64,000 nt of DNA from an uncultured Chloroflexia bacterium (GCA_963765765.1 CAVXYC010000027.1:128001-192000), one strand, 5' to 3'. Counted from the stretch's first letter, positions 15,506 to 30,046 are shown. Numbers and translations are program-made. The notes: generated by a model not told the origin, from the letters alone.

Positions 15506-15817
15506 GTGACGTTTACTGACAAAGTGTTGGTGTGTCGAGAGTGCGGTGCCAGCTTTATCTTCACTTCGGGGGAGCAGGAGTTCTTCGCCATGAAGGGCCT
15601 GCAAAATGAGCCTGGCCGCTGTACTGATTGTCGCTCGGTCCGGCGACAACAACGCGACACCGGTGGCGCCATGGGCGATTATCGCCCACGACGTGAGATG
15701 CACGACGCCGTCTGCGCGCAGTGCGGACAAACCACGCAGGTGCCTTTCCTCCCGCGTGGCGACCGACCAGTCTATTGCAGCTCCTGTTTTGAACAGGTCC
15801 GCTCTGTCAGGCGCTGA
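15506..15817 (+). CDS. Zinc-ribbon / CxxC-x17-CxxC domain protein
   Basis: DKVLVCRECG..F.FT.GEQEFF..KG..NEP.RC..CR and CAQCG...VPF.P...RPVYCSSCF; strong GGAGGTGA RBS. Confidence 0.88.
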   Translation: MTFTDKVLVCRECGASFIFTSGEQEFFAMKGLQNEPGRCTDCRSVRRQQRDTGGAMGDYRPRREMHDAVCAQCGQTTQVPFLPRGDRPVYCSSCFEQVRSVRR

Positions 15818-15901: not shown

Positions 15902-17326
15902 CTAAGGGATGATCGATGAGGCCGCCTGGACAGCGAGTGGAATGAACACCCCCGACAAAATCCCCACAATGAGAACACCCGCGGTGGCCGTGAGCAGAGT
16001 GAGGGCAGGTCCAACATCCACGATGACCGGCTTGTCCACAGTCGGCTCCACCAGATACATCTGGCGGACGACACGCGTGTAGTAGTAGAGCGAGATGGCG
16101 GAATTCACGACGCCCAACAAGACCAGCCAGTACATGCCGCTCTGCGCCACTGTCCAGAACAGATACAGTTTGGAGAAGAACCCAACCAGCGGTGGCAGGC
16201 CCGCCAGCGACAGCAACGCCAGCGACATCGCTAGCGCGAGCAGCGGCGCCCGTCGACCAAGACCCGAAAAGTACTCGAGATCCTCGTCCGGGATGTATCG
16301 CGAAAGCATGATGATGACGGTGAATGCCGCAATGTTCGTCAGCATGTAGGACAACAAATAGAAAAGAACAGCCGAATAGCTCTCCTGCGTCGCGACGGCT
16401 GGCCCCATCAACATGTAACCCACGTGGGCAATGCTGGAATAGGCCAGCAAGCGCTTCACATTACTCTGGACGAGCGCGGCAAGATTCCCGATGGTCATGG
16501 TCAATGCCGCCAGCACGGCCATGAGCGCGGTCCAGTCGCCCTGGATAGATGGAAGTGCGACCGCGAGAATCCTCAACAAAACAGAAAAACCGGCGGCCTT
16601 TGATGCAACCGAGAGGAACGCGGTAACTGGCGTTGGCGCCCCCTCGTAAACGTCAGGGGTCCACATCTGAAATGGCACGGCCGAGATCTTGAACCCGAAG
16701 CCAGCGACGATCATCGACAACGCCAGCAGCGCCGCGGCGCTGGTATCACTAGTAAGCGCACCACGAATGCCCGATAGCGTTGTGACGCCGGTCGCGCCGT
16801 AGAGTAGCGCCATTCCGAACAGCAGAATGGCCGTCGACATGGCGCTGAGGACGAAGAACTTCAGACCCGCCTCACTGGAGCGCAGATCACGCTTCGCCCA
16901 GCTTGCCATGAACGCCAATGAAAGACTGGTAAGCTCGAGCGACACAAAGATGGAGATAAGCTCCGTGGAGCTCGCCATCAGCATGAATCCGGTTGTACAG
17001 AAAAGGATCGCCGAATAGAACTCGGCTTCGTACTGTTCCACCAGATCGGTAAATGTCTCCGAGGCCAGCAGGACGAGGCCGGCAGCCAGCAGGAACAAGA
17101 ACTTGAAGAAGATCGAGTAGTTGTCAACCGTGTAGGCGCCAAAGAATGACGTCTCACTGCGTCCAATGAGCGCTCCTGTCGCGCCCATGGCACCAACCAC
17201 GCCCACCAGAGCAAGGTAGAGCAGTGGCCGGCGCGATGCTCCAGCCGGTAGGAACACGCCCACCAGCAGGACCACACAGGCCCACACTGTCAGGACAAGC
17301 TCAGGAGCTAGAAGAGAGAGATTCAA
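15902..17326 (-). CDS. nuoN: NADH-quinone oxidoreductase subunit N
   Basis: EAGLKFF, FKISAVPFQMWTPDVYEGAPTP, KRLLAYSSIAH. Confidence 0.95.
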   Translation of the reverse strand: MNLSLLAPELVLTVWACVVLLVGVFLPAGASRRPLLYLALVGVVGAMGATGALIGRSETSFFGAYTVDNYSIFFKFLFLLAAGLVLLASETFTDLVEQYEAEFYSAILFCTTGFMLMASSTELISIFVSLELTSLSLAFMASWAKRDLRSSEAGLKFFVLSAMSTAILLFGMALLYGATGVTTLSGIRGALTSDTSAAALLALSMIVAGFGFKISAVPFQMWTPDVYEGAPTPVTAFLSVASKAAGFSVLLRILAVALPSIQGDWTALMAVLAALTMTIGNLAALVQSNVKRLLAYSSIAHVGYMLMGPAVATQESYSAVLFYLLSYMLTNIAAFTVIIMLSRYIPDEDLEYFSGLGRRAPLLALAMSLALLSLAGLPPLVGFFSKLYLFWTVAQSGMYWLVLLGVVNSAISLYYYTRVVRQMYLVEPTVDKPVIVDVGPALTLLTATAGVLIVGILSGVFIPLAVQAASSIIP

Positions 17327-17344
17327 GTCGTCCTCCGTCCGAAC

Positions 17345-18823
17345 CTATCCGAACAACCGCGCGATAGGAGTTACTCCGCCGGCGATCATCTCGGCAATGA
17401 CGTTGGGGAACACACCCACCAGGATGATGACCGCAACCAGCGTGCCGACGGCAAACCCTTCACGGGCGGACATGTCAGTGAGATGTGAGTCGCGCCATTC
17501 TTGACCAAGCGGACCCATGAAGACTCGCTCCAGCATCCACAAGAGATATCCGGCGGTGATGACGATGGCGAACGCTCCGATGACCGTGTACCACTGCCAG
17601 ACGGGGAACGAGCCAATGAACACCAGGAACTCACCGACGAAGCCGCTCATTCCTGGCAAGCCAAGCGAAGCAAGCGCGGCCACAACAAAGAGCGCGCCGG
17701 CCACAGGCATGCGCTGGGCTAATCCAGCCATTCGAGGAATTTCGCGCGTGTGCGTACGGTCGTAGACGACACCCACCATCATGAACAAGAGCCCTGTGAT
17801 CGTTCCGTGTGTAACCATCTGGAACACCGCGCCCTGGAAACCAGTTTGCGTCAGCGCAGACAGACCCAGGATGACGTATCCCATGTGGCTGATGCTGGAG
17901 TTCGCGATCATCTTCTTGAGGTCGGTCTGAGCCAGCGCCACCATGGCCCCATAGATGATATTGACCACCGCAAGTACGGCCAGGAGCCAGGAAAGCTGCT
18001 GAGCGGCCTCAGGGAGCACACTCACGCACAATCGCAGTAGACCGTAGCCGCCCATTTTCAGTAGCACACCTGCGAGTAGCACACTCCCTGGGGTGGGCGC
18101 CTCAACGTGAGCATCCGGAAGCCAGGTATGGAACGGAAAGATCGGCACCTTTACCGCGAAACCGATCGCCAGAAGCAGGAACAATCCAACCTGGACGCTC
18201 GGCGCAAGTGAGCGAGCCGCGGTAGAAAGCTCGACCATGTCGAAGCTACGTCCGCCTGTGAAGAAGAACAGCGCCAGAATGCCCAGCAGCATGAAGGCAC
18301 TGCCGACCACCGTGTACACGATGAATTTCATAGCCGCATACTCGCGGCGAGGTCCGCCCCAGATGCCGATGAGCAGGTACATCGGAATCAGTTCCAGCTC
18401 CCAGAAGAGGAAGAACAGGAAGAAATCAAGCGACGTGAATACGCCCGAGACTGCTGTCTGAAGGATCAACAGGATAGAGAAATAGAGCTGCGGACGATGA
18501 GTCTGATTCCACGAGATGACAACGGCCAGGAATCCCAGCAACGTGTTGAGGACGAGCAGCGGAAGGCTGATCCCATCCACTCCTAGCTTGTAGTAGGACC
18601 TAATCGGCGGAAGCCACATGAATCCGCCGTCGAATTGAAACCCAGCAATCGCGCTGTTAAAGGCCGCGAAGAGCCAGATAGACAATCCAAGTGTCGCGAT
18701 CGTAATGATCGCGGCTATCCGTCGCGGTGCACCTGTACCGCCGCCACCAATGATCCCGATGAGGATCGCCCCGAGCATCGGGAGCCAGACAACGAGCTGA
18801 AGGACGAGGGTCTCAAGCGACAT
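17345..18823 (-). CDS. nuoM: NADH-quinone oxidoreductase subunit M
   Basis: LGVDGIS, FWELELIPMY, HTWLPDAHVEAPT, LLKMGGYG. Confidence 0.95.
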   Translation of the reverse strand: MSLETLVLQLVVWLPMLGAILIGIIGGGGTGAPRRIAAIITIATLGLSIWLFAAFNSAIAGFQFDGGFMWLPPIRSYYKLGVDGISLPLLVLNTLLGFLAVVISWNQTHRPQLYFSILLILQTAVSGVFTSLDFFLFFLFWELELIPMYLLIGIWGGPRREYAAMKFIVYTVVGSAFMLLGILALFFFTGGRSFDMVELSTAARSLAPSVQVGLFLLLAIGFAVKVPIFPFHTWLPDAHVEAPTPGSVLLAGVLLKMGGYGLLRLCVSVLPEAAQQLSWLLAVLAVVNIIYGAMVALAQTDLKKMIANSSISHMGYVILGLSALTQTGFQGAVFQMVTHGTITGLLFMMVGVVYDRTHTREIPRMAGLAQRMPVAGALFVVAALASLGLPGMSGFVGEFLVFIGSFPVWQWYTVIGAFAIVITAGYLLWMLERVFMGPLGQEWRDSHLTDMSAREGFAVGTLVAVIILVGVFPNVIAEMIAGGVTPIARLFG

Positions 18824-18873
18824 GACGGCTCCAGCTCACGATGACACCTACAGGAGAAGTATTCGCGGTGGCG

Positions 18874-20817
18874 TTAACGGACACGAACCACCACCATAAA
18901 GAACGCGATGATGACGAGTCCGCCAAAAACTGCCAGGGCATACGACTGCACGCGACCCGTCTGCGCCAGGCGCAAAGCGCCGCCAGCGTTCACCGTAACT
19001 CGCGCGATGCCATTGACCGCGCCATCGATAACACGCCGGTCGAAGTTCGCCAGCGTCGCCGCGCCACCAATGAATATGGTGCCAATCAGCGCGTTGTAGA
19101 GTCGATCGAATCCATACTTATTAATGGCGCCCACGTATATCGGCCGGAATACCGCTGTCATTGTGGCCGGCGAAAGTGCCTTTCTGTAGTACATCGCCCA
19201 TGCGAGACCAATGCCCGCGACAGCGAGAAGTACTGAACCGCCCGCAACCATCACATTTGGCTCCACATGCTCCGGATGGCCGTGCTCTAGAAAGTTTCCG
19301 AAGCCGTTCCCAAAGAGTGGCGCGCCCCATAGACCACTCAGTACGCTGGGTACGGCAAGGATGAGCAGGGGAGCCGCCATCAAGGGGTACTTGTCCACCC
19401 ACCCGTGAGGGTGCTCGTGGCCGCGCTGCTCGCCGCTGAATGTCATGAACACCGCTCGGAACATGTAGAACGCCGTGAGGAACACGGTAATCATGGCGAA
19501 GACGAAGAGCACAACGAAGACGGGCTCCCCGTGAGTTGCCCTATCAAACGTTGCCAGCAGGACCTCATCCTTGCTCCAGAACCCACTGAGTGGCGGGATA
19601 CCCGCAAGCGAAAGTGCCGCGATCACCATCGTGATACCGGTGATACGGAGAGGCTTCCAGAGACCGCCCAGAAGGCGCATGTCTTGCGTGCCGGCGGCGT
19701 GAATAATGCTCCCCGCGGTGAGAAATAGGAGCGCTTTAAAAAACGCGTGATTAAACAGGTGGAAAATGCTGGCTGAGTATGCTCCGGCTCCCAGCGCCAG
19801 CATCATGTAGCCAAGCTGACTAATGGTGGAATAGGCCATGACCCGCTTGAGGTCAAATGACACAACACCCATCGTTGCCGCGAAGATGGCCGTGAATCCG
19901 CCGATCACGGCCACCACCATCATCGCGGTAGCCGAGTGCTCGGTGATCGGCAGCATTCTGGCCATCAGGTAGACGCCGGCCGCAACCATGGTGGCCGCGT
20001 GGATCAGTGCGGAAACGGGTGTTGGGCCCTCCATGGCATCCGGCAGCCACACGTGGAGCGGGAATTGAGCGGACTTACCGACCGCCCCAGCGAATACGAG
20101 CAGCGCAGCGATGGTTACATCGGCGCTCGTGAAAGTGCCAGTCGCCGCCGCTTGCTCGATCTCGGTGAATCCGAGGCCCCCGATTCTCCACCAGATATAG
20201 AGAATGCCAAGGAGCAAACCAAAGTCGCCGAGTCGTGTGGTGACGAACGCCTTCTTGGCCGCTTCGAAAGGGGAAGGACGCTTGTCTACTTCATTCTCTA
20301 ACTGCGGCTCAGCGGGCGGACGGTCATACCAGAATCCGATAAGGAGGAATGATCCGAGCCCAACCCCTTCCCAGAACAGATACACGGCCAGCAGGTTATT
20401 GGACAGCACCAGCCCCAACATGGCGCAGGTAAAGAGACACAAAAACGCAAAGAACCGCCCATATCCGGGATCGAGCTCCCAATGTCCATGGTGCTCGTGA
20501 CGCATGTACCCCTGCGAATATAGGTGAACCAATAAACTGACTGAGGTGACGACAACCAGCATGATTACCGCCAGTGGGTCGACTCGCATGCCGAGCACCA
20601 GCGACTCCGTGGCTCCCAGTGAGAGCCACGGGATACTGACGTCCAGCTCATTGCCCGCCATGACCTCTTGAAAGACCAACAACGAGATGACGAACGACAG
20701 AGCGACGGCCGCTGTAGCCAACGCCGCGGCCGCCTCTTTCTGCCGTCGCAGGAACAAAATGATGAACGCGAAGGCGGCAAAGGGTAGGAGCGGGATGAGC
20801 CAGGCTTGATTGATCAC
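18874..20817 (-). CDS. nuoL: NADH-quinone oxidoreductase subunit L
   Basis: GKSAQFPLHVWLPDAMEGPTPVSALIHAATMV, AYSTISQLGYM, HAFFKALLFL. Confidence 0.95.
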   Translation of the reverse strand: MINQAWLIPLLPFAAFAFIILFLRRQKEAAAALATAAVALSFVISLLVFQEVMAGNELDVSIPWLSLGATESLVLGMRVDPLAVIMLVVVTSVSLLVHLYSQGYMRHEHHGHWELDPGYGRFFAFLCLFTCAMLGLVLSNNLLAVYLFWEGVGLGSFLLIGFWYDRPPAEPQLENEVDKRPSPFEAAKKAFVTTRLGDFGLLLGILYIWWRIGGLGFTEIEQAAATGTFTSADVTIAALLVFAGAVGKSAQFPLHVWLPDAMEGPTPVSALIHAATMVAAGVYLMARMLPITEHSATAMMVVAVIGGFTAIFAATMGVVSFDLKRVMAYSTISQLGYMMLALGAGAYSASIFHLFNHAFFKALLFLTAGSIIHAAGTQDMRLLGGLWKPLRITGITMVIAALSLAGIPPLSGFWSKDEVLLATFDRATHGEPVFVVLFVFAMITVFLTAFYMFRAVFMTFSGEQRGHEHPHGWVDKYPLMAAPLLILAVPSVLSGLWGAPLFGNGFGNFLEHGHPEHVEPNVMVAGGSVLLAVAGIGLAWAMYYRKALSPATMTAVFRPIYVGAINKYGFDRLYNALIGTIFIGGAATLANFDRRVIDGAVNGIARVTVNAGGALRLAQTGRVQSYALAVFGGLVIIAFFMVVVRVR

Positions 20818-20821
20818 GGTC

Positions 20822-21145
20822 TTATCCCTTCAACAAGTCAATCTGGTCGACCCGCACCGTACGGCGGAGTCGATAGACCGCGATCACAATAGCTAATCCA
20901 ACCGCCGCCTCAGCAGCGGCGACCGTAATGATGAAGATGGCGAAGATCTGACCAGCCATCTCCTGCGCAGGCTGGAGATATCGGGCGAAGGCCACCATGA
21001 TGATATTCACGCCGTTGAGCATGAGCTCAATTGAGAGCAGCACCCCGATGGCATTCCGCCGTGAAAGCGCGCCAAACATGCCCAGCGAAAACAGCGCCGC
21101 TCCGAGAACCAGAAAATGCTGGAGTGTGAGCGGGAAAAGTGACAT
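20822..21145 (-). CDS. nuoK: NADH-quinone oxidoreductase subunit K
   Basis: SIELMLN, VAAAEAAVGLAI. Confidence 0.95.
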   Translation of the reverse strand: MSLFPLTLQHFLVLGAALFSLGMFGALSRRNAIGVLLSIELMLNGVNIIMVAFARYLQPAQEMAGQIFAIFIITVAAAEAAVGLAIVIAVYRLRRTVRVDQIDLLKG

Positions 21146-21148
21146 TGG

Positions 21149-21646
21149 CTAATTCTCCCGCGCGATCACGAGCGCGCCAATGAGTGCGGCGGTCAGCAGC
21201 ACAGACGCAATCTCGAACGGCAGCACGTAGTTGGTTAGCAGAAGCTGACCTATCCTTTCCGTGGTAGGTGCATTGACCACATCAGTCCGGATGCGCCACG
21301 GCGTTATCAACATGACACTTGTGGTGATCACGAAGACCACCGTGGACAAGATACCCGCTGCAAGGGTTTGCCCCTGACTGGCGAGGCCTGGAATCTCAAC
21401 TTGGCCAGGTGTGAGCATGATCGCGAACAACATCAGGATCATGATGGCGCCGACATAGATGAGGATCTGCGCCACCGCTAGAAAGTCGGCGTTGAGCAGT
21501 AGATAGACCACGGCAACGCCGCCAAACGAAAGGACGAGTGCCAGGGCGCTTCGAACCATCTCCTTTGAGCGGAGCATTCCTACGGCACCGCACAGGCAGA
21601 CGACGACTGCGACCCAGAATGTGATCGCTGCGAATACGTCCGTCAT
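21149..21646 (-). CDS. nuoJ: NADH-quinone oxidoreductase subunit J
   Basis: QILIYVGAI, PFEIASVLL. Confidence 0.93.
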   Translation of the reverse strand: MTDVFAAITFWVAVVVCLCGAVGMLRSKEMVRSALALVLSFGGVAVVYLLLNADFLAVAQILIYVGAIMILMLFAIMLTPGQVEIPGLASQGQTLAAGILSTVVFVITTSVMLITPWRIRTDVVNAPTTERIGQLLLTNYVLPFEIASVLLTAALIGALVIAREN

Positions 21647-21648
21647 GC

Positions 21649-22455
21649 CTATGTGCCCCCATCAGTCTTTGGGGCGCCTCGGCCGATCCCAGCCGCCGCG
21701 GCGCGCTCTTTGTAGATTCGGGCGCGATCGGAGGCGCTCAGCCCCTCGAGATCAGCAGTCTTGGAGAGAGGACCTCCAGGGCCCGCTGGCGCAGCCGAAG
21801 GCGCGACAGCAGCGGGCGCCGGTGGCGCTTCAGTCCCTGTTGGCGTGAGCGGAGCTCCGGGCGCAGGTCGCGAACCCGGCGGGGGGGCGTCGGCTGACGT
21901 TTGTGCTGGGCGGGCCGGAGTGGAGGCCGCCGCTCCGGCTGCACGAGCGGCCGGAGCAGGCCTTTGAGCCGCTGAAGCTTCCTGACCAGACCTTCCGCGC
22001 TTCACACCCTGGATGTACTCCATGGCAGCATCAACCTCAGGCGTACCCGGAATTCGGAGCTGGTGCATATTGAACACCAGCGACTGCTGGCGATCGTATG
22101 TCCCAAGCTCGAAATCGGGCGCCATGACAATCGCCCTGAACGGACATGCTTCAACGCACAGAGCGCACTCAATGCAGCCGCCCATATCGAGGTCGAAGCG
22201 ATCGAGCACCTTTTTGCGATCGGGCCCCGCCTGATATTCAATTTTGATGACATCCACGGGGCACGCAATCGCGCATGCGCCACATGAGGTGCAGCGGAGC
22301 TCACCGTTCTCCAATTCGTAAATTAGGCGGGGCCGACCACGAGTCCAGGGCGGCATCTCCATCTTCTCTTCCGGGTATTGAATGGTCACCGGCTTCGAGA
22401 AGAAGAAGTGCCGAAGCGTCGTCGCCATGCCCGCCAGAATTCCGAGTCCCAGCAT
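21649..22455 (-). CDS. nuoI: NADH-quinone oxidoreductase subunit I with a long Pro/Ala C-terminal extension
   Basis: VTIQYPEE; two CxxCxxCxxxCP motifs. Confidence 0.93.
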   Translation of the reverse strand: MLGLGILAGMATTLRHFFFSKPVTIQYPEEKMEMPPWTRGRPRLIYELENGELRCTSCGACAIACPVDVIKIEYQAGPDRKKVLDRFDLDMGGCIECALCVEACPFRAIVMAPDFELGTYDRQQSLVFNMHQLRIPGTPEVDAAMEYIQGVKRGRSGQEASAAQRPAPAARAAGAAASTPARPAQTSADAPPPGSRPAPGAPLTPTGTEAPPAPAAVAPSAAPAGPGGPLSKTADLEGLSASDRARIYKERAAAAGIGRGAPKTDGGT

Positions 22456-22461
22456 CGTCGA

Positions 22462-23523
22462 TTACCTCGGCATCAGGTGCGGCAATACGAACGCGACCGC
22501 GAGCGCCGTCAATGCGACGTTCGCCAATGCGATCGGGAAGAGCCGCTTCCACGCGAAATGCATCAATTGGTCGTAGCGGAGTCTCGGCAACGTTCCGCGG
22601 AACCAGAAGAATACGAAGATCAGGGCACTCACCTTGCCCATGAACCAGATGTACGGCGGCAGAATCGGCCCGTCCCAGCCTCCCAGAAAGAACACCGCGC
22701 CCAGCGCCGAGATGACGAAGACGTTGGCGTACTCCGCCAAGAAGAACAGGGCGAAACGCATACCGCTGTATTCGGTATGAAAACCGGCGATGATCTCTGA
22801 TTCAGCCTCTACCAGGTCAAAGGGCGTCCGATTGCTCTCCGCGGTTCCAGCGATCAAGAAGATTAGGAATGCCAGCGGCCCAATGGGGAAGAAAAAAATG
22901 TACCACAGACCTCCGGACTGCGCCTTAACGATGTCCTGAAGCGACATCGAGCTAGCCAGGAGTACAGGTACAAGGACCGCCAAAATGCCAGGTATCTCGT
23001 AGCTTACGAACTGAGCAGCCGCACGCATGCCTCCCAACAGTGAGTACTTGTTGTCAGAGGCCCAGCCCGCCATGACGAAGCCAATGCTCGGCAAGCCGCT
23101 CATGGCGATAACAAAGAGGACCGCGACGTTGAGATCCGCCACCGCCAGCCCTGGTGCAAACGGAATAACCGCCCAGACCATGAGCGAAGCGCCCAGGACA
23201 ATGATTGGCGAGAGAGCGAACAACAGCCTGTCCGCACCCGCGGGGACAATGTCTTCCTTCGTCAGCAGCTTCACCGCGTCAGCGACCGGCTGCAGGAGTC
23301 CGAACGGCCCTACACGGTTCGGCCCATATCGATCCTGCATACGGGCGATGACCTTGCGCTCGAAATATACCAGCGCCATCACTACAACCGGGATGATCGC
23401 GAAGAGAATGGCGATGCCAAGGAGGCTCAAGATGGCGCTGGCGAGCCAGTCAGGCATGAAACTGACTAACACACCGTAAAGCAGGTCTCGGATAAAGCCG
23501 AATGGGTTGTAGATGAAATCCAC
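22462..23523 (-). CDS. nuoH: NADH-quinone oxidoreductase subunit H
   Basis: ERK..ARMQDRYGPNRVGP, NRTPFDLVEAESE, PRLRYDQLM. Confidence 0.95.
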   Translation of the reverse strand: MDFIYNPFGFIRDLLYGVLVSFMPDWLASAILSLLGIAILFAIIPVVVMALVYFERKVIARMQDRYGPNRVGPFGLLQPVADAVKLLTKEDIVPAGADRLLFALSPIIVLGASLMVWAVIPFAPGLAVADLNVAVLFVIAMSGLPSIGFVMAGWASDNKYSLLGGMRAAAQFVSYEIPGILAVLVPVLLASSMSLQDIVKAQSGGLWYIFFFPIGPLAFLIFLIAGTAESNRTPFDLVEAESEIIAGFHTEYSGMRFALFFLAEYANVFVISALGAVFFLGGWDGPILPPYIWFMGKVSALIFVFFWFRGTLPRLRYDQLMHFAWKRLFPIALANVALTALAVAFVLPHLMPR

Positions 23524-24662
23524 TAGCGGTCGACCTCGCCCATAACGATATCGAAGCTTCCCAGGATGACCACTGCATCCGCGACCTTATGTCCAATGAC
23601 GAGTTGAGACAGGACGCCGAGGTTGATGAAGCTGGGAGCACGGACCTTGAATCGATAGGGCGACGTGGTGCCGTCAGAAATCAGGAAGAAGCCGAGCTCC
23701 CCTTTGGGGGCCTCAATTCGGGCGTATGCAGAGCCTTTGGGGGGACGAAGTACTTTGGGTAGCCGCGCACGGAACTCACCCTCGGGAATGTCCGCTAACG
23801 CCTGCTTGAGAATGCGTACTGACTCACGCATCTCCGCGACACGAACCAGGTAGCGATCGTAGCAATCGCCGTTGTATCGAATCGGGACGTCCCAGTCGAA
23901 GCGATCGTAGATTCCGTAGGGCTCCGCACGTCGGACGTCGTAATTGATGCCGCTGGCGCGCGCGATTGGACCGGTGATGCTAAAGGCCTTGGCGAGATCG
24001 GGTGGAAGGTACCCAACGCCGATCGTACGCGCCCTGAAGATCTCGTTGTTCGTGAGAAGTGACTCATACTCATCGATCTTGCCCGGCATCTCGTCAACAA
24101 AAGCGCGGGCCTTCTCGATGAACTCGGGAGTCAGATCACGCGCGACGCCGCCAAAGCGTATGTAACTCGGGTTCATGCGCACGCCCGCGCACAGCCCAAA
24201 AAGATCAAGAATCACCTCGCGCTCACGGAACGCGTACACCAGCGGAGTGAACCACGTGCCCACGTCTGCGCCAAATGTGCCGATTGCCACAAGGTGACTG
24301 GCCAAGCGATTCAGCTCGACCGTAATGACTCGGATGAAGTCACCGCGCTCAGGAATCTCGAGACCGGTAAGCTTTTCTACGGCCAATGCATAGGCAAGGT
24401 TATTGGACATCGGGGCCAGATAATCCATGCGGTCTGTCAGTGTTACCGCCTGGACCCACGTTCGCGCCTCACCGAGCTTCTCGGTAGATCGATGGAGGTA
24501 GCCCATGACGGGTCGCGCGGAAATAACCGTCTCGCCGTCGAGCTGCAGGACCAGTCGAAATACCCCATGCGTGCTGGGGTGCTGTGGTCCCATGTTGAGG
24601 GTCATCTTCCCCTCTTCAGTGGCTTCCGCCACCTCCATGGTCGCGCCCTCAAACATACTCAA
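23523..24662 (-). CDS. nuoD: NADH-quinone oxidoreductase subunit D
   Basis: NMGPQHPSTHGV, GYLHR, EAPKGELG, C-terminal GEVDR. Confidence 0.95.
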   Translation of the reverse strand: MSMFEGATMEVAEATEEGKMTLNMGPQHPSTHGVFRLVLQLDGETVISARPVMGYLHRSTEKLGEARTWVQAVTLTDRMDYLAPMSNNLAYALAVEKLTGLEIPERGDFIRVITVELNRLASHLVAIGTFGADVGTWFTPLVYAFREREVILDLFGLCAGVRMNPSYIRFGGVARDLTPEFIEKARAFVDEMPGKIDEYESLLTNNEIFRARTIGVGYLPPDLAKAFSITGPIARASGINYDVRRAEPYGIYDRFDWDVPIRYNGDCYDRYLVRVAEMRESVRILKQALADIPEGEFRARLPKVLRPPKGSAYARIEAPKGELGFFLISDGTTSPYRFKVRAPSFINLGVLSQLVIGHKVADAVVILGSFDIVMGEVDR

Positions 24663-24724
24663 ACTCCGATGCCAGTCCTGAGGCTGCCGAGCCGCACCGC
24701 GGAATAACGACCGTCATCGCGCCC

Positions 24725-25552
24725 TCAACCATGGTCATACTCCGACGTTCGTCCCGAGAGCGGCGCTTCGCGCTGTTGCTCAGCTCCATAACGAAGATGG
24801 TGAACCAGGACGTACTGGAAGTCCATCTCGAAGTCCTTACGCAGCGGGTGCCCTGGGAAATCGTCGTCCAGAAGAATGCGTCGAAGCTCGGGGTGTCCGG
24901 CGAACTTAATGCCCATGAGGTCGTAGACTTCGCGCTCCTGGTAATCGGCACCCGGCCATAACGGGGTCAGCGAATCGACCAACGGGTTCGCCTCAGGCTC
25001 CAAAGAAACTCTGAGCACGAGACAACCCGGTTGCTTCGCATAGTCATACCCGTAGAGGTGATAGAGCAGCTCCAGGCGATCTTTCCAGTCAACGGCCGTT
25101 ATGGATGACAGATAGTCGTAGCCAAGCTCATCACGCGCGGCTCGCGCCGCCGCGACAAGATTGTCACGATCTATCGTCACTTCAACGTATCCATGAACAC
25201 GCTCCCACTTGAGATCGGGGGCAATGCCCTTGAGCACAGGGAGCTCGGAGGGATCTGGCTCAGGCTCTTCTACCTTAGGTTCCGGCGCGGGCTTGGCAGC
25301 CGCGGCAGGTGCAGGAGCCGCCGGCTTTGGTGCAGCAGGAGCCGTGGGCGCAGGAGCGGACGGTACAGCGGCGGCTGGCGCGGGCGGAGGTGCCGCTGCC
25401 GGGGCGGGCGCATCAGCGCTTGCCGCTGCCGGCGCACGGCCAATACCCGCTGCGGCGGCGCGCTCCTTGTAAATCCGCGCGCGCTCCGACGGAGTTAAGT
25501 TGGCAATGTCGTCCGTCTTAGCGAGCGGGTTGCCGATTGGTTCATCAGCCAT
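24725..25552 (-). CDS. nuoC: NADH-quinone oxidoreductase subunit C with an N-terminal extension
   Basis: ITAVD, EREVYDLMGIKFAGHPELRRIL, GHPLRKDF. Confidence 0.93.
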   Translation of the reverse strand: MADEPIGNPLAKTDDIANLTPSERARIYKERAAAAGIGRAPAAASADAPAPAAAPPPAPAAAVPSAPAPTAPAAPKPAAPAPAAAAKPAPEPKVEEPEPDPSELPVLKGIAPDLKWERVHGYVEVTIDRDNLVAAARAARDELGYDYLSSITAVDWKDRLELLYHLYGYDYAKQPGCLVLRVSLEPEANPLVDSLTPLWPGADYQEREVYDLMGIKFAGHPELRRILLDDDFPGHPLRKDFEMDFQYVLVHHLRYGAEQQREAPLSGRTSEYDHG

Positions 25553-25572
25553 ACGTTCTTCTTGTCTCCGCT

Positions 25573-26178
25573 CTAGCTCTTGTTAGCGGTGGCTTCCATA
25601 TTGATCTTGCGCTGAAGCTGGATAACCGCGTGCAGTAGCGCATCTGGCCGGGGCGGACACCCCGCGATGTACACGTCAACCGGGAGGAAATTATCGATCC
25701 CCGGAACGGTGCTATACGAGCCCTGATAAGGGCCGCCGGCGATCACGCAGGTCCCCATGGCAATGACGTACTTCGGGTCCGACATCTGGTCATAGAGTCG
25801 GCGCACCGCGGGCGCCATCTTCGTTGTGACGGTGCCCGAGACGATCATCACGTCTGCCTGCCGCGGTGACGGACGAAACACCTCTGCTCCGAATCGGGCG
25901 ATGTCAAACCGAGCAGTACCTACGGCCATCATCTCGATAGCACAGCAGGCGAGCCCAAATGTCATTGGCCAGAGCGATGAAGTCCGCGCCCAGGCGATGA
26001 GCGAGTCCAGCGAGGTGACCATTGCGTGGCCCTTGAGGTCCCACGGAACGTCAAGTCGAGACTCGAGAATCTGATCTGCCGGGAGGGGCTGGGCGAAATC
26101 GAGCGTCGTCCGGTCGTCGTCAATGTTAATGACCTTCGGATACTCCTGATTGAACTTGTCGTGGTTATTTACTGACAT
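25573..26178 (-). CDS. nuoB: NADH-quinone oxidoreductase subunit B
   Basis: [22 protein letters not shown]. Confidence 0.95.
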
Positions 26179-26202
26179 TGGCCTGGCTCCGTTGGGCGCC
26201 CT

Positions 26203-26559
26203 TTACATCCACTCAAGGTCACCCTTACGCCACGCGTAGGCGTAGCCTACAAGCAAGAACGCGACAAAGATGCCCATCTCAATCAGGGCGAAAAGGCCAA
26301 GCTGGTCGAAAGCCACGGCCCACGGAAAGAGGAAGAGCACCTCCACGTCAAAGATGACGAAGATGAGCGCGTAAAGATAATAACGAGTGCGGAACTGGAT
26401 GTGCGTTGGCCCGATTGTGGTCATGCCGCTCTCATACGGCTGCGATTTCACGGTGTCCGGACGCTTCGGCGCCACGAGCCGCGAAAGCCCCAGTGGCACC
26501 ATCGGAAAGATCAGCGCAACGATGAGAAAGAGCGCAACAGGACCATAAGATTCAAGCAA
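26203..26559 (-). CDS. nuoA: NADH-quinone oxidoreductase subunit A
   Basis: PYESG, FDVEVLFLFPWA, KGDLEW; AAGGAG RBS, TTG start. Confidence 0.93.
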   Translation of the reverse strand: MLESYGPVALFLIVALIFPMVPLGLSRLVAPKRPDTVKSQPYESGMTTIGPTHIQFRTRYYLYALIFVIFDVEVLFLFPWAVAFDQLGLFALIEMGIFVAFLLVGYAYAWRKGDLEWM

Positions 26560-26861: not shown

Positions 26862-28292
26862 ATGGCGCCGCGAGACCTTCGCGCATTCATCAAACAACTC
26901 GAGCAGGCTGGTGAGCTTCGACGCATCGCCGCAGAGGTCAGTCCCCATCTAGAGATCACCGAGATTGCCGATCGAGTCATGAAGACGGGTGGCCCCGCCC
27001 TTCTTTTTGAGAACGTCGAAGGCTCAACAATGCCGGTGCTGATCAACGCGCTCGGATCACGGCGTCGGATGAGCATGGCACTGGGAGTCGACGATCTGGA
27101 CGAGCATGCTCAACGCATTCGGAAGCTCGTCACCATGGCACCGCCATCCGACCTTGCGGGCAAGCTCCGCGCGCTTGGAGATTTGAAGGATATCGCCAGC
27201 ATCGGTCCGCGAGGTGTATCGCACGGCCCGTGTCAGGAAGTGATCGTTCCAGAGCCATCGCTGAAGCAGCTTCCGGTTCTCACTTGCTGGCCTGATGATG
27301 GTGGCCCCTACATCACCCTTGGACTAGTGTTTACGCGCGATCCGCGCACCGCCCGCCGTAACGTTGGGCTCTATCGCGTTCAGGTCTACAACGAGCGAGA
27401 GGCGGCAATGCACTGGCAGATCCACAAGGGCGGTGCGGATCATTACCGTGAAGCCGGTAAGCGGCTGGAAGTTGCCGTCGTCATTGGCGCCGATCCAGCC
27501 ACGGTCTACAGCGCATCCGCGCCGTTGCCACCAACAATCGACGAACTGCTCTTCGCCGGCTTCCTCCGCCGAGCCCCCGTCGAGACGGTGAAATGCCGCA
27601 CCGTTGATATCGAAGTGCCCGCGCAGGCTGAGATCGTACTGGAAGGTTACGTGGATCCGGATGATCTACGGGTCGAGGGCCCGTTTGGCGACCACACCGG
27701 CTACTATTCACTTGCCGACAACTACCCCGTCTTTCATCTAACGATGATGACGCACCGACGTAATCCGATCTATCACACGACCATCGTTGGACAGCCGCCC
27801 ATGGAGGACTACTACATGGGTAAGGCCACGGAGCGACTTTTCCTTCCGCTCATGCAGCTCGTTGCCCCGGAGATCGTGGACGTCAATATGCCGGCGGAGG
27901 GCGTGTTCCACAACCTTGTGCTCGTCTCCATCAAGAAGAGATTCCCCGGTCATGCGCACAAGGTCATGTATGCGCTCTGGGGCATGGGGCAGATGATGTT
28001 CGCTCGCAACATCATCGTTCTGGATGACGACGTGGACGTGCAGAACCTTTCCGAGGTTGCCTGGCGGGTGACCGCGAATGTCGATGCACGGCGAGATCTC
28101 GTCATCCTGGATGGCCCTGTTGACGTCCTCGACCACGCCTCGCCCCAGCCGCTCATCGGCGGGAAGCTGGGTATCGACGCCACGCGCAAGACACCCGCGG
28201 ACGGCTACACCCGGGAGTGGCCGCCCGATATCGTGATGTCGCCAGACATCAAAGCGCTGGTGGATCGTCGGTGGAGTGAATACGGGATCTAG
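26862..28292 (+). CDS. UbiD-family decarboxylase, menaquinone (futalosine pathway, MqnL-like)
   Basis: LEITEIADR, GPALLFEN, EGPFGDHTGYY, GQPPMED, KLGIDAT; next to UbiA and MenG genes. Confidence 0.88.
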   Translation: MAPRDLRAFIKQLEQAGELRRIAAEVSPHLEITEIADRVMKTGGPALLFENVEGSTMPVLINALGSRRRMSMALGVDDLDEHAQRIRKLVTMAPPSDLAGKLRALGDLKDIASIGPRGVSHGPCQEVIVPEPSLKQLPVLTCWPDDGGPYITLGLVFTRDPRTARRNVGLYRVQVYNEREAAMHWQIHKGGADHYREAGKRLEVAVVIGADPATVYSASAPLPPTIDELLFAGFLRRAPVETVKCRTVDIEVPAQAEIVLEGYVDPDDLRVEGPFGDHTGYYSLADNYPVFHLTMMTHRRNPIYHTTIVGQPPMEDYYMGKATERLFLPLMQLVAPEIVDVNMPAEGVFHNLVLVSIKKRFPGHAHKVMYALWGMGQMMFARNIIVLDDDVDVQNLSEVAWRVTANVDARRDLVILDGPVDVLDHASPQPLIGGKLGIDATRKTPADGYTREWPPDIVMSPDIKALVDRRWSEYGI

Positions 28293-28440
28293 TCGTCAGC
28301 ACCCTCTGCAATACGCCGCTGATCCGCTAAGTTCCCATGCTTAGGTCTCGGGTAACCCACCCGGCCAGGACTCCCCGGTGGTGCGCCCTGAAATTTTCCA
28401 TTCGTTACACTTCTTGCGGATCTGATCAAGGAGCCGGCTA

Positions 28441-29283
28441 CTGAAACTCCTTCTCGAAAACGTCAAATTCGAGCACACCATCTTCGCACTGCCGTTTGCC
28501 TACCTGGGGATGGTGCTGGCGGCCGGCGGCTGGCCTACCTGGCACCAGCTGATCTGGGTAACGGTTGCGATGGCCGCGGCGCGAACGATGGCCATGTCGC
28601 TCAATCGCGCCATCGATCGGGAGATTGACGCCAGGAACCCGCGCACCGCGATACGTCCGATTCCTAGCGGCCGACTGAGCGTCAGCAAGGTATGGATCGC
28701 GGCAGGCGTTTCGGCCGGAGTACTCACCTTCGCTGCCTGGCAGCTTAATGAGCTGGCAGTAAAGCTGCTGCCCGTGGCGATGATCATCCTCACTCTGTAC
28801 CACTACACCAAACGGTTCACCTGGCTCTGCCATCTGGGGCTTGGCATTGCCGATGGAGGCGCCCCACTGGGTGGGTGGCTGGCCGTGACAGGCGCCATCG
28901 ACCCACCGGCCTGGCTCCTGTTCATCGCCGTAACAACGTGGGTGGGGGGCTTTGATCTCATTTACGCATGCCAGGACGTCGACTTCGACCGCGCCAACGG
29001 CTTGCATTCCGTCCCGGTGCGCTTCGGCATAGCCAAAAGCCTATGGTCCGCGCGCATTTCGCATCTCATCACGCTGCTCGCGCTGGCCGGCGTCGGTTTC
29101 ATGCTCAATCTTGGGCCGCTGTACTGGGCCGGATGGCTAGCCGCGCTTGGGCTGTTAGCGTACGAGCATAGTCTGGTCTCCCCACGCGATCTGTCGAAAC
29201 TGAATGTCGCGTTCTTCAATATCAATGGCTACATTGGCGTGATCGTTCTCGGATTCACGCTGGCAGCCGTGCTCGCGCGCTGA
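28441..29283 (+). CDS. UbiA-family prenyltransferase (MqnP-like), probable CTG start
   Basis: VKFEHTIFALPFAY upstream of the ORF-track start, NRAIDREIDARNPRT, DLIYACQDVDFDR. Confidence 0.88.
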   Translation: MKLLLENVKFEHTIFALPFAYLGMVLAAGGWPTWHQLIWVTVAMAAARTMAMSLNRAIDREIDARNPRTAIRPIPSGRLSVSKVWIAAGVSAGVLTFAAWQLNELAVKLLPVAMIILTLYHYTKRFTWLCHLGLGIADGGAPLGGWLAVTGAIDPPAWLLFIAVTTWVGGFDLIYACQDVDFDRANGLHSVPVRFGIAKSLWSARISHLITLLALAGVGFMLNLGPLYWAGWLAALGLLAYEHSLVSPRDLSKLNVAFFNINGYIGVIVLGFTLAAVLAR

Positions 29284-29308
29284 TGCAGCGTTTATCTGTA
29301 GGCATCCA

Positions 29309-30046
29309 GTGACCCAGTCCCAGCCACATCCTATTCTGCCGAATAGCCAGGATCGCTCCCGCTTCGTCAGCGAGATGTTCGGTCGAATTGCATCGCGTTA
29401 CGATCTGATGAATACCGTCATGACGTTCGGTCAGGATGCATGGTGGCGGCGCCTGGCTGTTGCAGCGGCAGCTCCGCCTACCGATGGCGTGGCGCTGGAC
29501 GTTGGTACCGGCACGGGAAAAGTCGCTTTCGATCTCGCCCGCCGGATGACTGGCGGACGGGTCATCGCGAGCGACTTCTCCGAGGCAATGCTTCGCCAGG
29601 GGCAGCGTTCCCTTGAATCCACGCCCGCGGCGCGCCGGGTCCAGTTTGTTGTCGGAGATGCACTGCACCTGCCCTGCCCGAACGCCAGCATGGATTGCGT
29701 CACATCGGCCTTCACCGTGCGGAATCTCACGAGCGCGGTGGAGGGCTTCCGCGAGATGGCCAGAGTGACTCGCCCGGGCGGGCGTGTTGTCTGCCTTGAG
29801 ATCACACGATTGGATAATCCATTGCAGCGCAAGCTCTTCGGTATCTATTTCAGCGGCCTCGTTCCACTTATCGGCCGGCTCATTAGCGGTGACGACACGG
29901 CGTATCGCTATCTTCCGGCTTCAGTAGACGCATTCCACAATCCTTATGAGCTGGCGGTCCAGATGCGCGAAGCCGGCCTGGTCTTCATCACGCGGAGAAT
30001 GCTGGGCATGGGCACCGTCACAATGCTGACGGGCACCAAGCCCTAG
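29309..30046 (+). CDS. menG: Demethylmenaquinone methyltransferase (UbiE/MenG)
   Basis: MFGRIASRYDLMN, LDVGTGTG, EMARVTRPGGR, AYRYLPASV. Confidence 0.88.
   Translation: MTQSQPHPILPNSQDRSRFVSEMFGRIASRYDLMNTVMTFGQDAWWRRLAVAAAAPPTDGVALDVGTGTGKVAFDLARRMTGGRVIASDFSEAMLRQGQRSLESTPAARRVQFVVGDALHLPCPNASMDCVTSAFTVRNLTSAVEGFREMARVTRPGGRVVCLEITRLDNPLQRKLFGIYFSGLVPLIGRLISGDDTAYRYLPASVDAFHNPYELAVQMREAGLVFITRRMLGMGTVTMLTGTKP

Follow-up and report, generated by a model that had tools for sequence, protein, structure and literature searches.

The stretch of DNA analysed here (the window) comprises 64,000 nucleotides from an uncultured Chloroflexia bacterium (GCA_963765765.1, CAVXYC010000027.1:128001-192000) and carries on its minus strand an operon for subunits of respiratory complex I. 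Its 11 genes, delineated as open reading frames with Pfam matches, stand in the order nuoA-B-C-D-H-I-J-K-L-M-N (15902-26559). All 11 products match their own Pfam families, the interval between nuoD and nuoH is empty of genes, and nuoE, nuoF and nuoG are lacking, as the first-pass annotation of the window had stated. Two of the products, NuoC and NuoI, bear the same short peptide (the tag), which is joined to the folded core of each by a long Pro- and Ala-rich linker and which the first-pass annotation took for a candidate docking device of a complex I lacking NuoEFG. Here we describe the tag as a strongly conserved peptide whose carrier changes between genera and which in relatives is also found on a subunit of a cytochrome b6c-type complex, and we tentatively propose that it recruits a common cytoplasmic partner to both complexes.

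The two carriers bear the tag at opposite ends. nuoC (24725-25552, minus strand) encodes 275 amino acids, in which the tag is followed by the Pro/Ala linker and the Complex1_30kDa core. The start 'MADE..' is kept in orthologues, the tag occupies residues 8-39 (25436-25531, minus strand; profile E = 4e-19), the linker (residues 40-104; 25241-25435, minus strand) consists of 42% Ala and 32% Pro, and the core matches PF00329 with E = 3e-40 over residues 125-244. nuoI (21649-22455, minus strand) encodes 268 amino acids, in which a core with two [4Fe-4S] clusters is followed by a linker rich in Ala, Pro and Gly, the tag (residues 228-259; 21679-21774, minus strand; profile E = 7e-17) and a nine-residue tail. 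The core matches the 4Fe-4S dicluster families of Pfam, and both 4Fe-4S motifs lie inside residues 54-111. The NuoI linker extends from about residue 159 to residue 227 (21775-21981, minus strand), its boundary with the core being set by the ends of untagged orthologues, since the untagged NuoI proteins of two relatives (G005 and G004) end shortly after '..GVKRG..'. Measured over residues 150-236, nine of which belong to the lead of the tag, this stretch contains 30% Ala and 21% Pro. The core profile matches and the place of both genes in the nuo operon confirm that NuoC and NuoI are complex I subunits.

The 28-residue peptides quoted in the first-pass annotation are exact translations of 25436-25519 (NuoC residues 12-39) and 21679-21762 (NuoI residues 232-259), both on the minus strand. 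They share an identical 16-residue core in which 10 of the 16 codons differ, every difference being synonymous: 10 synonymous differences fall on 13.8 synonymous sites, and none on the 34.2 non-synonymous sites. This bears out the earlier suggestion that selection acts on the peptide rather than on the DNA, and because all 10 core codon differences are synonymous, a recent duplication or an assembly artefact is excluded. We collected 28 tags in an alignment (A2), which also served as a search profile. Over 300 pairs drawn from 25 of these tags, three divergent rows being left out, the mean proportions of non-synonymous (pN) and synonymous (pS) differences are 0.20 and 0.61, and among NuoC orthologues the pairwise identity of the tag (0.68) is on a level with that of the core (0.67) and exceeds that of the linker (0.48). 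The peptide is under strong purifying selection. When the tag profile was run against the 99,334 open frames of the bacterium's own 6.49-Mb genome, a search that the first-pass annotation had proposed, only the NuoC and NuoI copies were found (next best E = 0.46), and the likeness of the two copies is far beyond chance.

Contigs from soil RNA libraries (four runs), 90-99% identical to the window, cover parts of nuoH, nuoD, nuoC and nuoI, and one from run X1 (21603-21843) spans the NuoI tag, which is a weak hint of expression, as DNA may be present in RNA libraries. Each of the 12 RNA runs contained just a small share of the sampled words (0.05-0.12), and stretches left uncovered in the four runs are uninformative. 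The stronger argument that the tag is probably translated comes from its conservation at the protein level in the face of saturated synonymous change.

The tag is not confined to complex I. A word-indexed search with NuoC residues 1-110 retrieved tagged NuoC, tagged NuoI and a tagged 'menaquinol-cytochrome c reductase cytochrome b/c subunit'. This third carrier, found in relatives, is a member of the PetD / cytochrome b C-terminal family (PF00032), with the tag at its N-terminus. It is a cytochrome b6c-type subunit IV (QcrC-like): PF00032 is matched by the tagged protein P0013 and by the 273-residue protein of the bacterium's own genome (G000), where the gene lies between those for cytochrome b6 (PF00033) and the Rieske protein. 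Among 86 tag loci, of which 17 lie on genome contigs and 69 on contigs from metagenomes, the host is a QcrC-like subunit IV in 47, NuoI in 12 and NuoC in six; the remaining 21 are cut by a contig end, and their sequences look like the C-terminus of NuoI or the N-terminus of QcrC or NuoC. The 86 loci include no fourth carrier, and among classifiable hosts the tag is confined to NuoC, NuoI and QcrC-like proteins. Ahead of their first membrane helix and behind the tag, the QcrC-like proteins have another conserved stretch of helical appearance ('..L.PEQR.RLAAAVQRG..'), which is present in the untagged G000 protein as well (L003, contig C15, 1498-2319, minus strand). Derivation of the tag from this second helix ('..EQR.R.A.AV.R..') was considered and rejected (hhalign probability 0.2).

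The carrier subunit changes between genera. In the family of the window (f1), G000 and G001, which belong to the same genus, have tagged NuoC and NuoI and an untagged QcrC (273-274 amino acids); G002, G007 and G008 have tagged QcrC and NuoI; G009 has a tagged NuoI and two tags in tandem on QcrC, its NuoC being untagged; and G005 has two tandem tags on QcrC, both its NuoI and its NuoC being short and untagged. A NuoC tag is found in f1 only in the window's own genus, and two or three tags are present in all seven f1 genomes in which the three carrier genes are fully assembled. The untagged NuoC of G009 (L042, 4174-5895, minus strand) has a low-complexity N-terminal extension of about 240 residues in which Ala, Pro and Thr abound. 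Of the 11 genomes of family f3, 7 carry three tags (QcrC, NuoC and NuoI). The f3 QcrC tag resembles the f1 form, and among the f3 loci read a more divergent tag stands on NuoC (G021, G025 and G030) and NuoI (G030 and G038), with the exception of G037, whose NuoC tag is QcrC-like. The single f5 genome with the tag, G013, has two in tandem on NuoI. The NuoC tag of G000 is closest to the N-terminal QcrC tags of sister genera (0.80, 0.77 and 0.77), a likeness compatible with 5'-end sequence having passed from one gene to the other, 35 alignment columns being no proof of it.

With the 28-row A2 profile the tag is detected in 21 of the 39 genomes of one Chloroflexota order, and with a single peptide as the query in 19 of 41 genomes of relatives. 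The positive families are f1 (8/9, or 7/8 without G006, which is flagged as unpublished), f3 (11/11) and f5 (1/1), and the tag-free families are f2 (0/5), f4 (0/8), f6 (0/3) and f7 (0/1). An even sample across the phylum gave 10 positive genomes out of 401, all in f1, f3 and f5. The record titles of the 17 loci that stem from species-representative genomes all name metagenome-assembled Chloroflexota or Chloroflexi. Only 40 of 1.84 billion representative proteins reach E <= 0.001 with the tag profile. Seventeen of these were inspected (15 together with P0004 and P0009), the other 23 being mostly fragments of less than 140 residues, and they comprise NuoC, NuoI, QcrC, four odd proteins and nothing else. 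The top representative match, P0029, a eukaryote-like IQ-repeat protein whose score adds up from 12 weak stretches, was judged spurious, as was the low-complexity protein P0053. Two further metagenome singletons stand outside the three carriers: P0045 (255 amino acids, on a 998-base contig), which has a perfect N-terminal tag followed by a phrog_7609-like part, and P0062 (328 amino acids), which combines a weak tag-like stretch with a phage-type helix-turn-helix. They may represent phage mimicry, chimeric contigs or chance matches. A scan of the IMG/VR viral contigs gave 18 pattern matches, none of which was confirmed as a tag.

The consensus of A2 is xxPLxRTPDMEGLSPAERAxIYKERAAAAGIGRAP. Arg18, Ala19, Lys23, Ala26, Ala28 and Gly32 are invariant in the 28 tags, and Leu4, Asp9, Tyr22 and Arg25 are conserved in at least 90% of the rows. 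The tag is predicted to consist of a short acidic lead and one 14-residue helix with a conserved Arg/Tyr/Lys/Ala face. In the AlphaFold2 model of full-length NuoC, computed from an eight-row alignment and read for secondary structure only (mean predicted local distance difference test, pLDDT, of 51.9), a short turn precedes a low-confidence helix at residues 21-34 (25451-25492, minus strand; pLDDT of 54-63 in blocks), and residues 36-83, with pLDDT below 50, are predicted to be disordered. The tandem-tag segment of G005 QcrC, modelled from a three-row alignment, has helices at residues 16-29 and 91-104 (predicted template modelling score, pTM, of 0.23). Both models, although of low confidence, show one helix per tag, disordered linkers and no confident packing onto the carrier. 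On a helical wheel, Arg18, Tyr22, Arg25, Ala29, Ala26, Ala19 and Lys23 fall within an arc of 80°-240°. The earlier description of the tag as a helix on a flexible Pro/Ala arm agrees with this low-confidence helix and with the measured composition of the linkers. Its description as a basic helix applies to the helical second half, which has a charge of +4, and fails for the first half, the lead, which has a charge of -2.

No described domain in Pfam, the PDB or the ESM Atlas was found to correspond to the tag. Full-length NuoC and NuoI gave no Pfam match in the tag at E <= 0.1. A search with the 28 isolated tags at E <= 10 returned CSTF_C in two (best E = 0.0011) and SBE2_N in one, which were taken as chance. 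A profile search of the PDB with the tag found no relative (best E = 0.55), and the ESM Atlas gave no usable match to it.

A possible reading of these observations, and the one that we tentatively favour, is that the tag is a portable, multivalent docking peptide that recruits a common cytoplasmic partner to both quinone-coupled complexes. Displayed by long Pro/Ala arms on the cytoplasmic side of the 11-subunit complex I and of the cytochrome b6c-type complex, the tags would capture this partner with avidity and hold it at the respiratory membrane beside both complexes. The partner would most plausibly be an acidic, possibly dimeric, redox protein or an adaptor, and the tag would act much as the peripheral-subunit-binding domain (PSBD) does in 2-oxoacid dehydrogenases, where the swinging arms of the E2 core carry it. 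NuoC and NuoI face the cytoplasm, and with subunit IV placed by its homology to PetD (PF00032) the attachment points of all three carriers are probably cytoplasmic. Because the carrier, and even the complex, is interchangeable whereas the number of copies stays at two or three, it seems that the chemistry of the carrier subunit is not what the tag serves. Several points weigh against such a recruiting role. The partner is hypothetical, no gene being known whose presence follows that of the tag, and the net charge of the peptide is only +2. In G004 (80% complete) NuoC and NuoI are untagged and QcrC was not found in the assembly. The pattern of at least two copies per genome represents few independent events among related genomes, and all of the carriers come from uncultured, metagenome-assembled genomes. 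The structure models are of low confidence (mean pLDDT of 52 and 59) and leave room for docking of the tag back onto its own complex.

That the tags are instead stickers for one another is rather unlikely. They would bind each other, or one bridging factor, and so tie complex I to the dimeric b6c complex, giving rise to supercomplexes or to patches in the membrane, with the Pro/Ala arms as spacers. The tag does stand on exactly the two complexes of which one passes quinol to the other; the presence of at least two tags per genome, with tandem duplication on QcrC or NuoI where another carrier is untagged, fits a valence of at least two; and the dipolar charge of the tag would suit antiparallel pairing. 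However, G000 and G001 tag complex I only and G005 tags the b6c complex only, and because just one complex is tagged in these genomes, tag-to-tag pairing cannot link both complexes there. Moreover, the natural tandem-tag segment of G005 was modelled as two separate helices with no confident arrangement. Co-folding of two tag copies with alignment A2 gave interaction prediction scores from aligned errors (ipSAE) of 0.02 and 0.02, which count neither for nor against pairing. A more elaborate version, a respiratory 'velcro', is speculative and similarly doubtful: two or more tags per complex, on arms of the 20-nm class and binding either themselves or a bridge, would join the complex I that lacks the N-module to the b6c complex in a supercomplex or a respiratory patch. 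In an equally doubtful extension of it, evolution would fix the number of stickers and shift them among NuoC, NuoI and subunit IV.

The reading that follows from the first-pass annotation, in which the arms stand in for NuoEFG and catch an electron donor (a ferredoxin, a flavodoxin or a dehydrogenase) on behalf of the 11-subunit complex I alone, is unlikely. It is favoured by the conserved Arg, Lys and Arg of the helix and by the distribution of tags within G000, which has a second, canonical nuo operon of 14 genes with nuoEFG (A-B-C-D-E-F-G-H-I…L; contig C30, L009, 4762-15187) and therefore two complex I isoforms: the canonical NuoC (154 amino acids) and NuoI (191 amino acids) are short and untagged, and only the NuoC and NuoI of the operon without nuoEFG bear tags. 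A carrier of the ferredoxin type might, in principle, also serve the n-side of a b6-type complex, as in cyclic electron flow around b6f and NDH-1. Against a donor dock specific to this enzyme, 47 of the 65 classifiable loci bear the tag on subunit IV of the b6c complex, and in G005 it is found only there, complex I being untagged. Orthologues of the 11-subunit-type NuoC are present in 37 of the 39 genomes of the order, tag-less families included, versus 21 of 39 for the tag, and the tag-less G015 (f7) and G016 (f2) keep the same gene order, A-B-C-D-H-I-J-K-L without E, F and G. Their matches start at NuoC residue 107 and end at NuoI residue 171 or 142, so that the tag regions are lacking. The subunit IV hosts, G005 and the tag-less operons show that the tag is neither needed by nor restricted to the enzyme without NuoEFG, and because tag-less sisters keep the operon, the tag is an accessory gained within part of the order rather than a general feature of such enzymes. 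What survives of the first-pass interpretation is the selection on the peptide, the helix on an arm, the operon without nuoEFG and a docking role as a plausible one; the tie to a complex I lacking NuoEFG is not supported. In two further tag-less genomes, G029 (f4; L163) and G023 (f6; L164), the orthologous operon reads nuoA-B-C-H-J-K-L, and tblastn found no match to nuoD or nuoI between the neighbouring genes; nuoD and nuoI may lie elsewhere, or the operon may encode a different enzyme.

A role in cis or in housekeeping, with the tag as an assembly aid or a regulatory plug on its own complex or as a recruiter of a chaperone, an Fe-S delivery factor or a protease adaptor, is quite improbable. 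Both carrier complexes contain Fe-S subunits, and the tag has a conserved hydrophobic-Tyr-Lys triplet that resembles the LYR tripeptide. NuoC and subunit IV themselves, however, are devoid of Fe-S clusters, the two complexes cannot have one cis surface in common, neither Complex1_LYR nor any other Pfam family is matched, and a search of G000 (92% complete) for the C-terminal domain of HscB (PF07743) found none. Binding to a non-protein ligand, either anionic membrane lipids or nucleic acid, is very improbable: the charge of the helical half would suit it, but the first half is acidic, the helix is not amphipathic, its hydrophobic moment (0.14-0.18) and mean hydrophobicity (-0.32) being unlike those of membrane-targeting helices, the carriers are membrane-bound already, and the near-invariant Ala, Tyr and Gly positions suggest a shaped protein interface.

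Several other features of the window accompany the tagged genes. The NuoB of the 11-gene operon (25573-26178, minus strand) has an N-terminal extension of about 60 residues in comparison with the NuoB of the canonical operon (201 versus 164 amino acids), and this extension is conserved in relatives. Genes of the UbiD, UbiA and UbiE families, which belong to quinone biosynthesis, lie at 26862-30046 on the plus strand, divergent from nuoA. Just downstream of nuoN, on the opposite strand (15506-15817, plus), a gene encodes a 103-residue protein with two treble-clef zinc-finger domains (zf_Tbcl and zf_Tbcl_2).

The tag bears on two open questions, namely how electrons are fed to the 11-subunit relatives of complex I that lack NuoEFG and how bacterial respiratory complexes are organized in the membrane. 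It offers a handle of about 30 residues that is conserved like a catalytic core, and the partner captured with it, be it a donor, an adaptor, the tag itself or another complex, would answer one of the two. The question concerns a widespread group of uncultured soil Chloroflexota, and the tag is in addition a clean natural case in which carrier proteins without mutual relationship have exchanged a short linear motif. Should the 'velcro' version be true, bacteria would here have their first supercomplex tether that is encoded in sequence and can be transferred. The literature, as covered by listings and abstracts, yielded no description of a tag common to complex I and a bc-type complex. Passages of PMC4453560 deal with the nuo gene content of Chloroflexi and leave the tag unmentioned.

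Tethered docking peptides are a known device, and judged by its sequence the tag belongs to no described family. It was compared with several known systems, and two candidates were rejected. The calmodulin-binding IQ consensus is IQxxxRGxxxR, the spacing of which does not fit the I-Y-K-E-R-A-A-A-A-G-I-G-R of the tag, and PF00612 has no match on the tags. Amyloid signalling motifs likewise recur in two proteins, at the C-terminus of the one and at the N-terminus of the other, but they are β-prone, rich in Gly, Asn, Gln and hydrophobic residues and have NLR-type neighbours; the tag is predicted to be helical, is charged and Ala-rich, and its carriers are respiratory subunits.

The LYR-motif proteins have, like the tag, a hydrophobic-Tyr-Lys/Arg triplet in a basic helix and are associated with complexes I and III. 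The LYR tripeptide recruits the Fe-S (HSC20) or acyl carrier protein machinery to mitochondrial complexes I-III, and LYRM proteins are regarded as eukaryotic. The tag conforms to [LIV]-Y-[RK], with Tyr at position 22 in at least 90% of the A2 rows, Lys23 invariant and Ile, Leu, Val or Met at position 21 with two exceptions. It differs in that the LYRM domain has three helices and finds no Pfam match in the tag, and the idea that HscB reads the tag as an LYR motif was given up, G000 having no detected PF07743 domain.

A second likeness is to the cyanobacterial and chloroplast NDH-1, also an 11-subunit complex I relative without an N-module, which gains basic elements near NdhI and NdhJ. There NdhS, NdhV and NdhO catch the donor, and NdhI and NdhJ are the counterparts of NuoI and NuoC. 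These three, however, are separate folded subunits of NDH-1 only, whereas the tag, a peptide on a tether, forms part of the core subunits themselves and occurs on the b6c complex too. No relation to them surfaced among the 1.84 billion representatives searched with the tag profile, no NdhS, NdhV or NdhO reference sequences having been used.

The PSBD (E3_binding) is a mini-module of about 35 residues that, like the tag, is flanked or preceded by flexible linkers rich in Ala and Pro. It contains a basic helix with a Ser-Pro cap at its start and docks acidic, often dimeric partner enzymes. Its profile matched neither full-length NuoC and NuoI (E <= 0.1) nor the 28 isolated tags (E <= 10), and it differs in having a two-helix fold on E2 cores, whereas the tag has one helix in the low-confidence models and is carried by respiratory membrane complexes. 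Finally, the C-terminal peptide of FtsZ and the C-terminal tail of SSB are short conserved end peptides behind a variable disordered linker, as the tag is, and both serve as hubs for partners. They differ from it in sequence, carriers and process, and the tag is distinguished by being common to three carriers, at either terminus.

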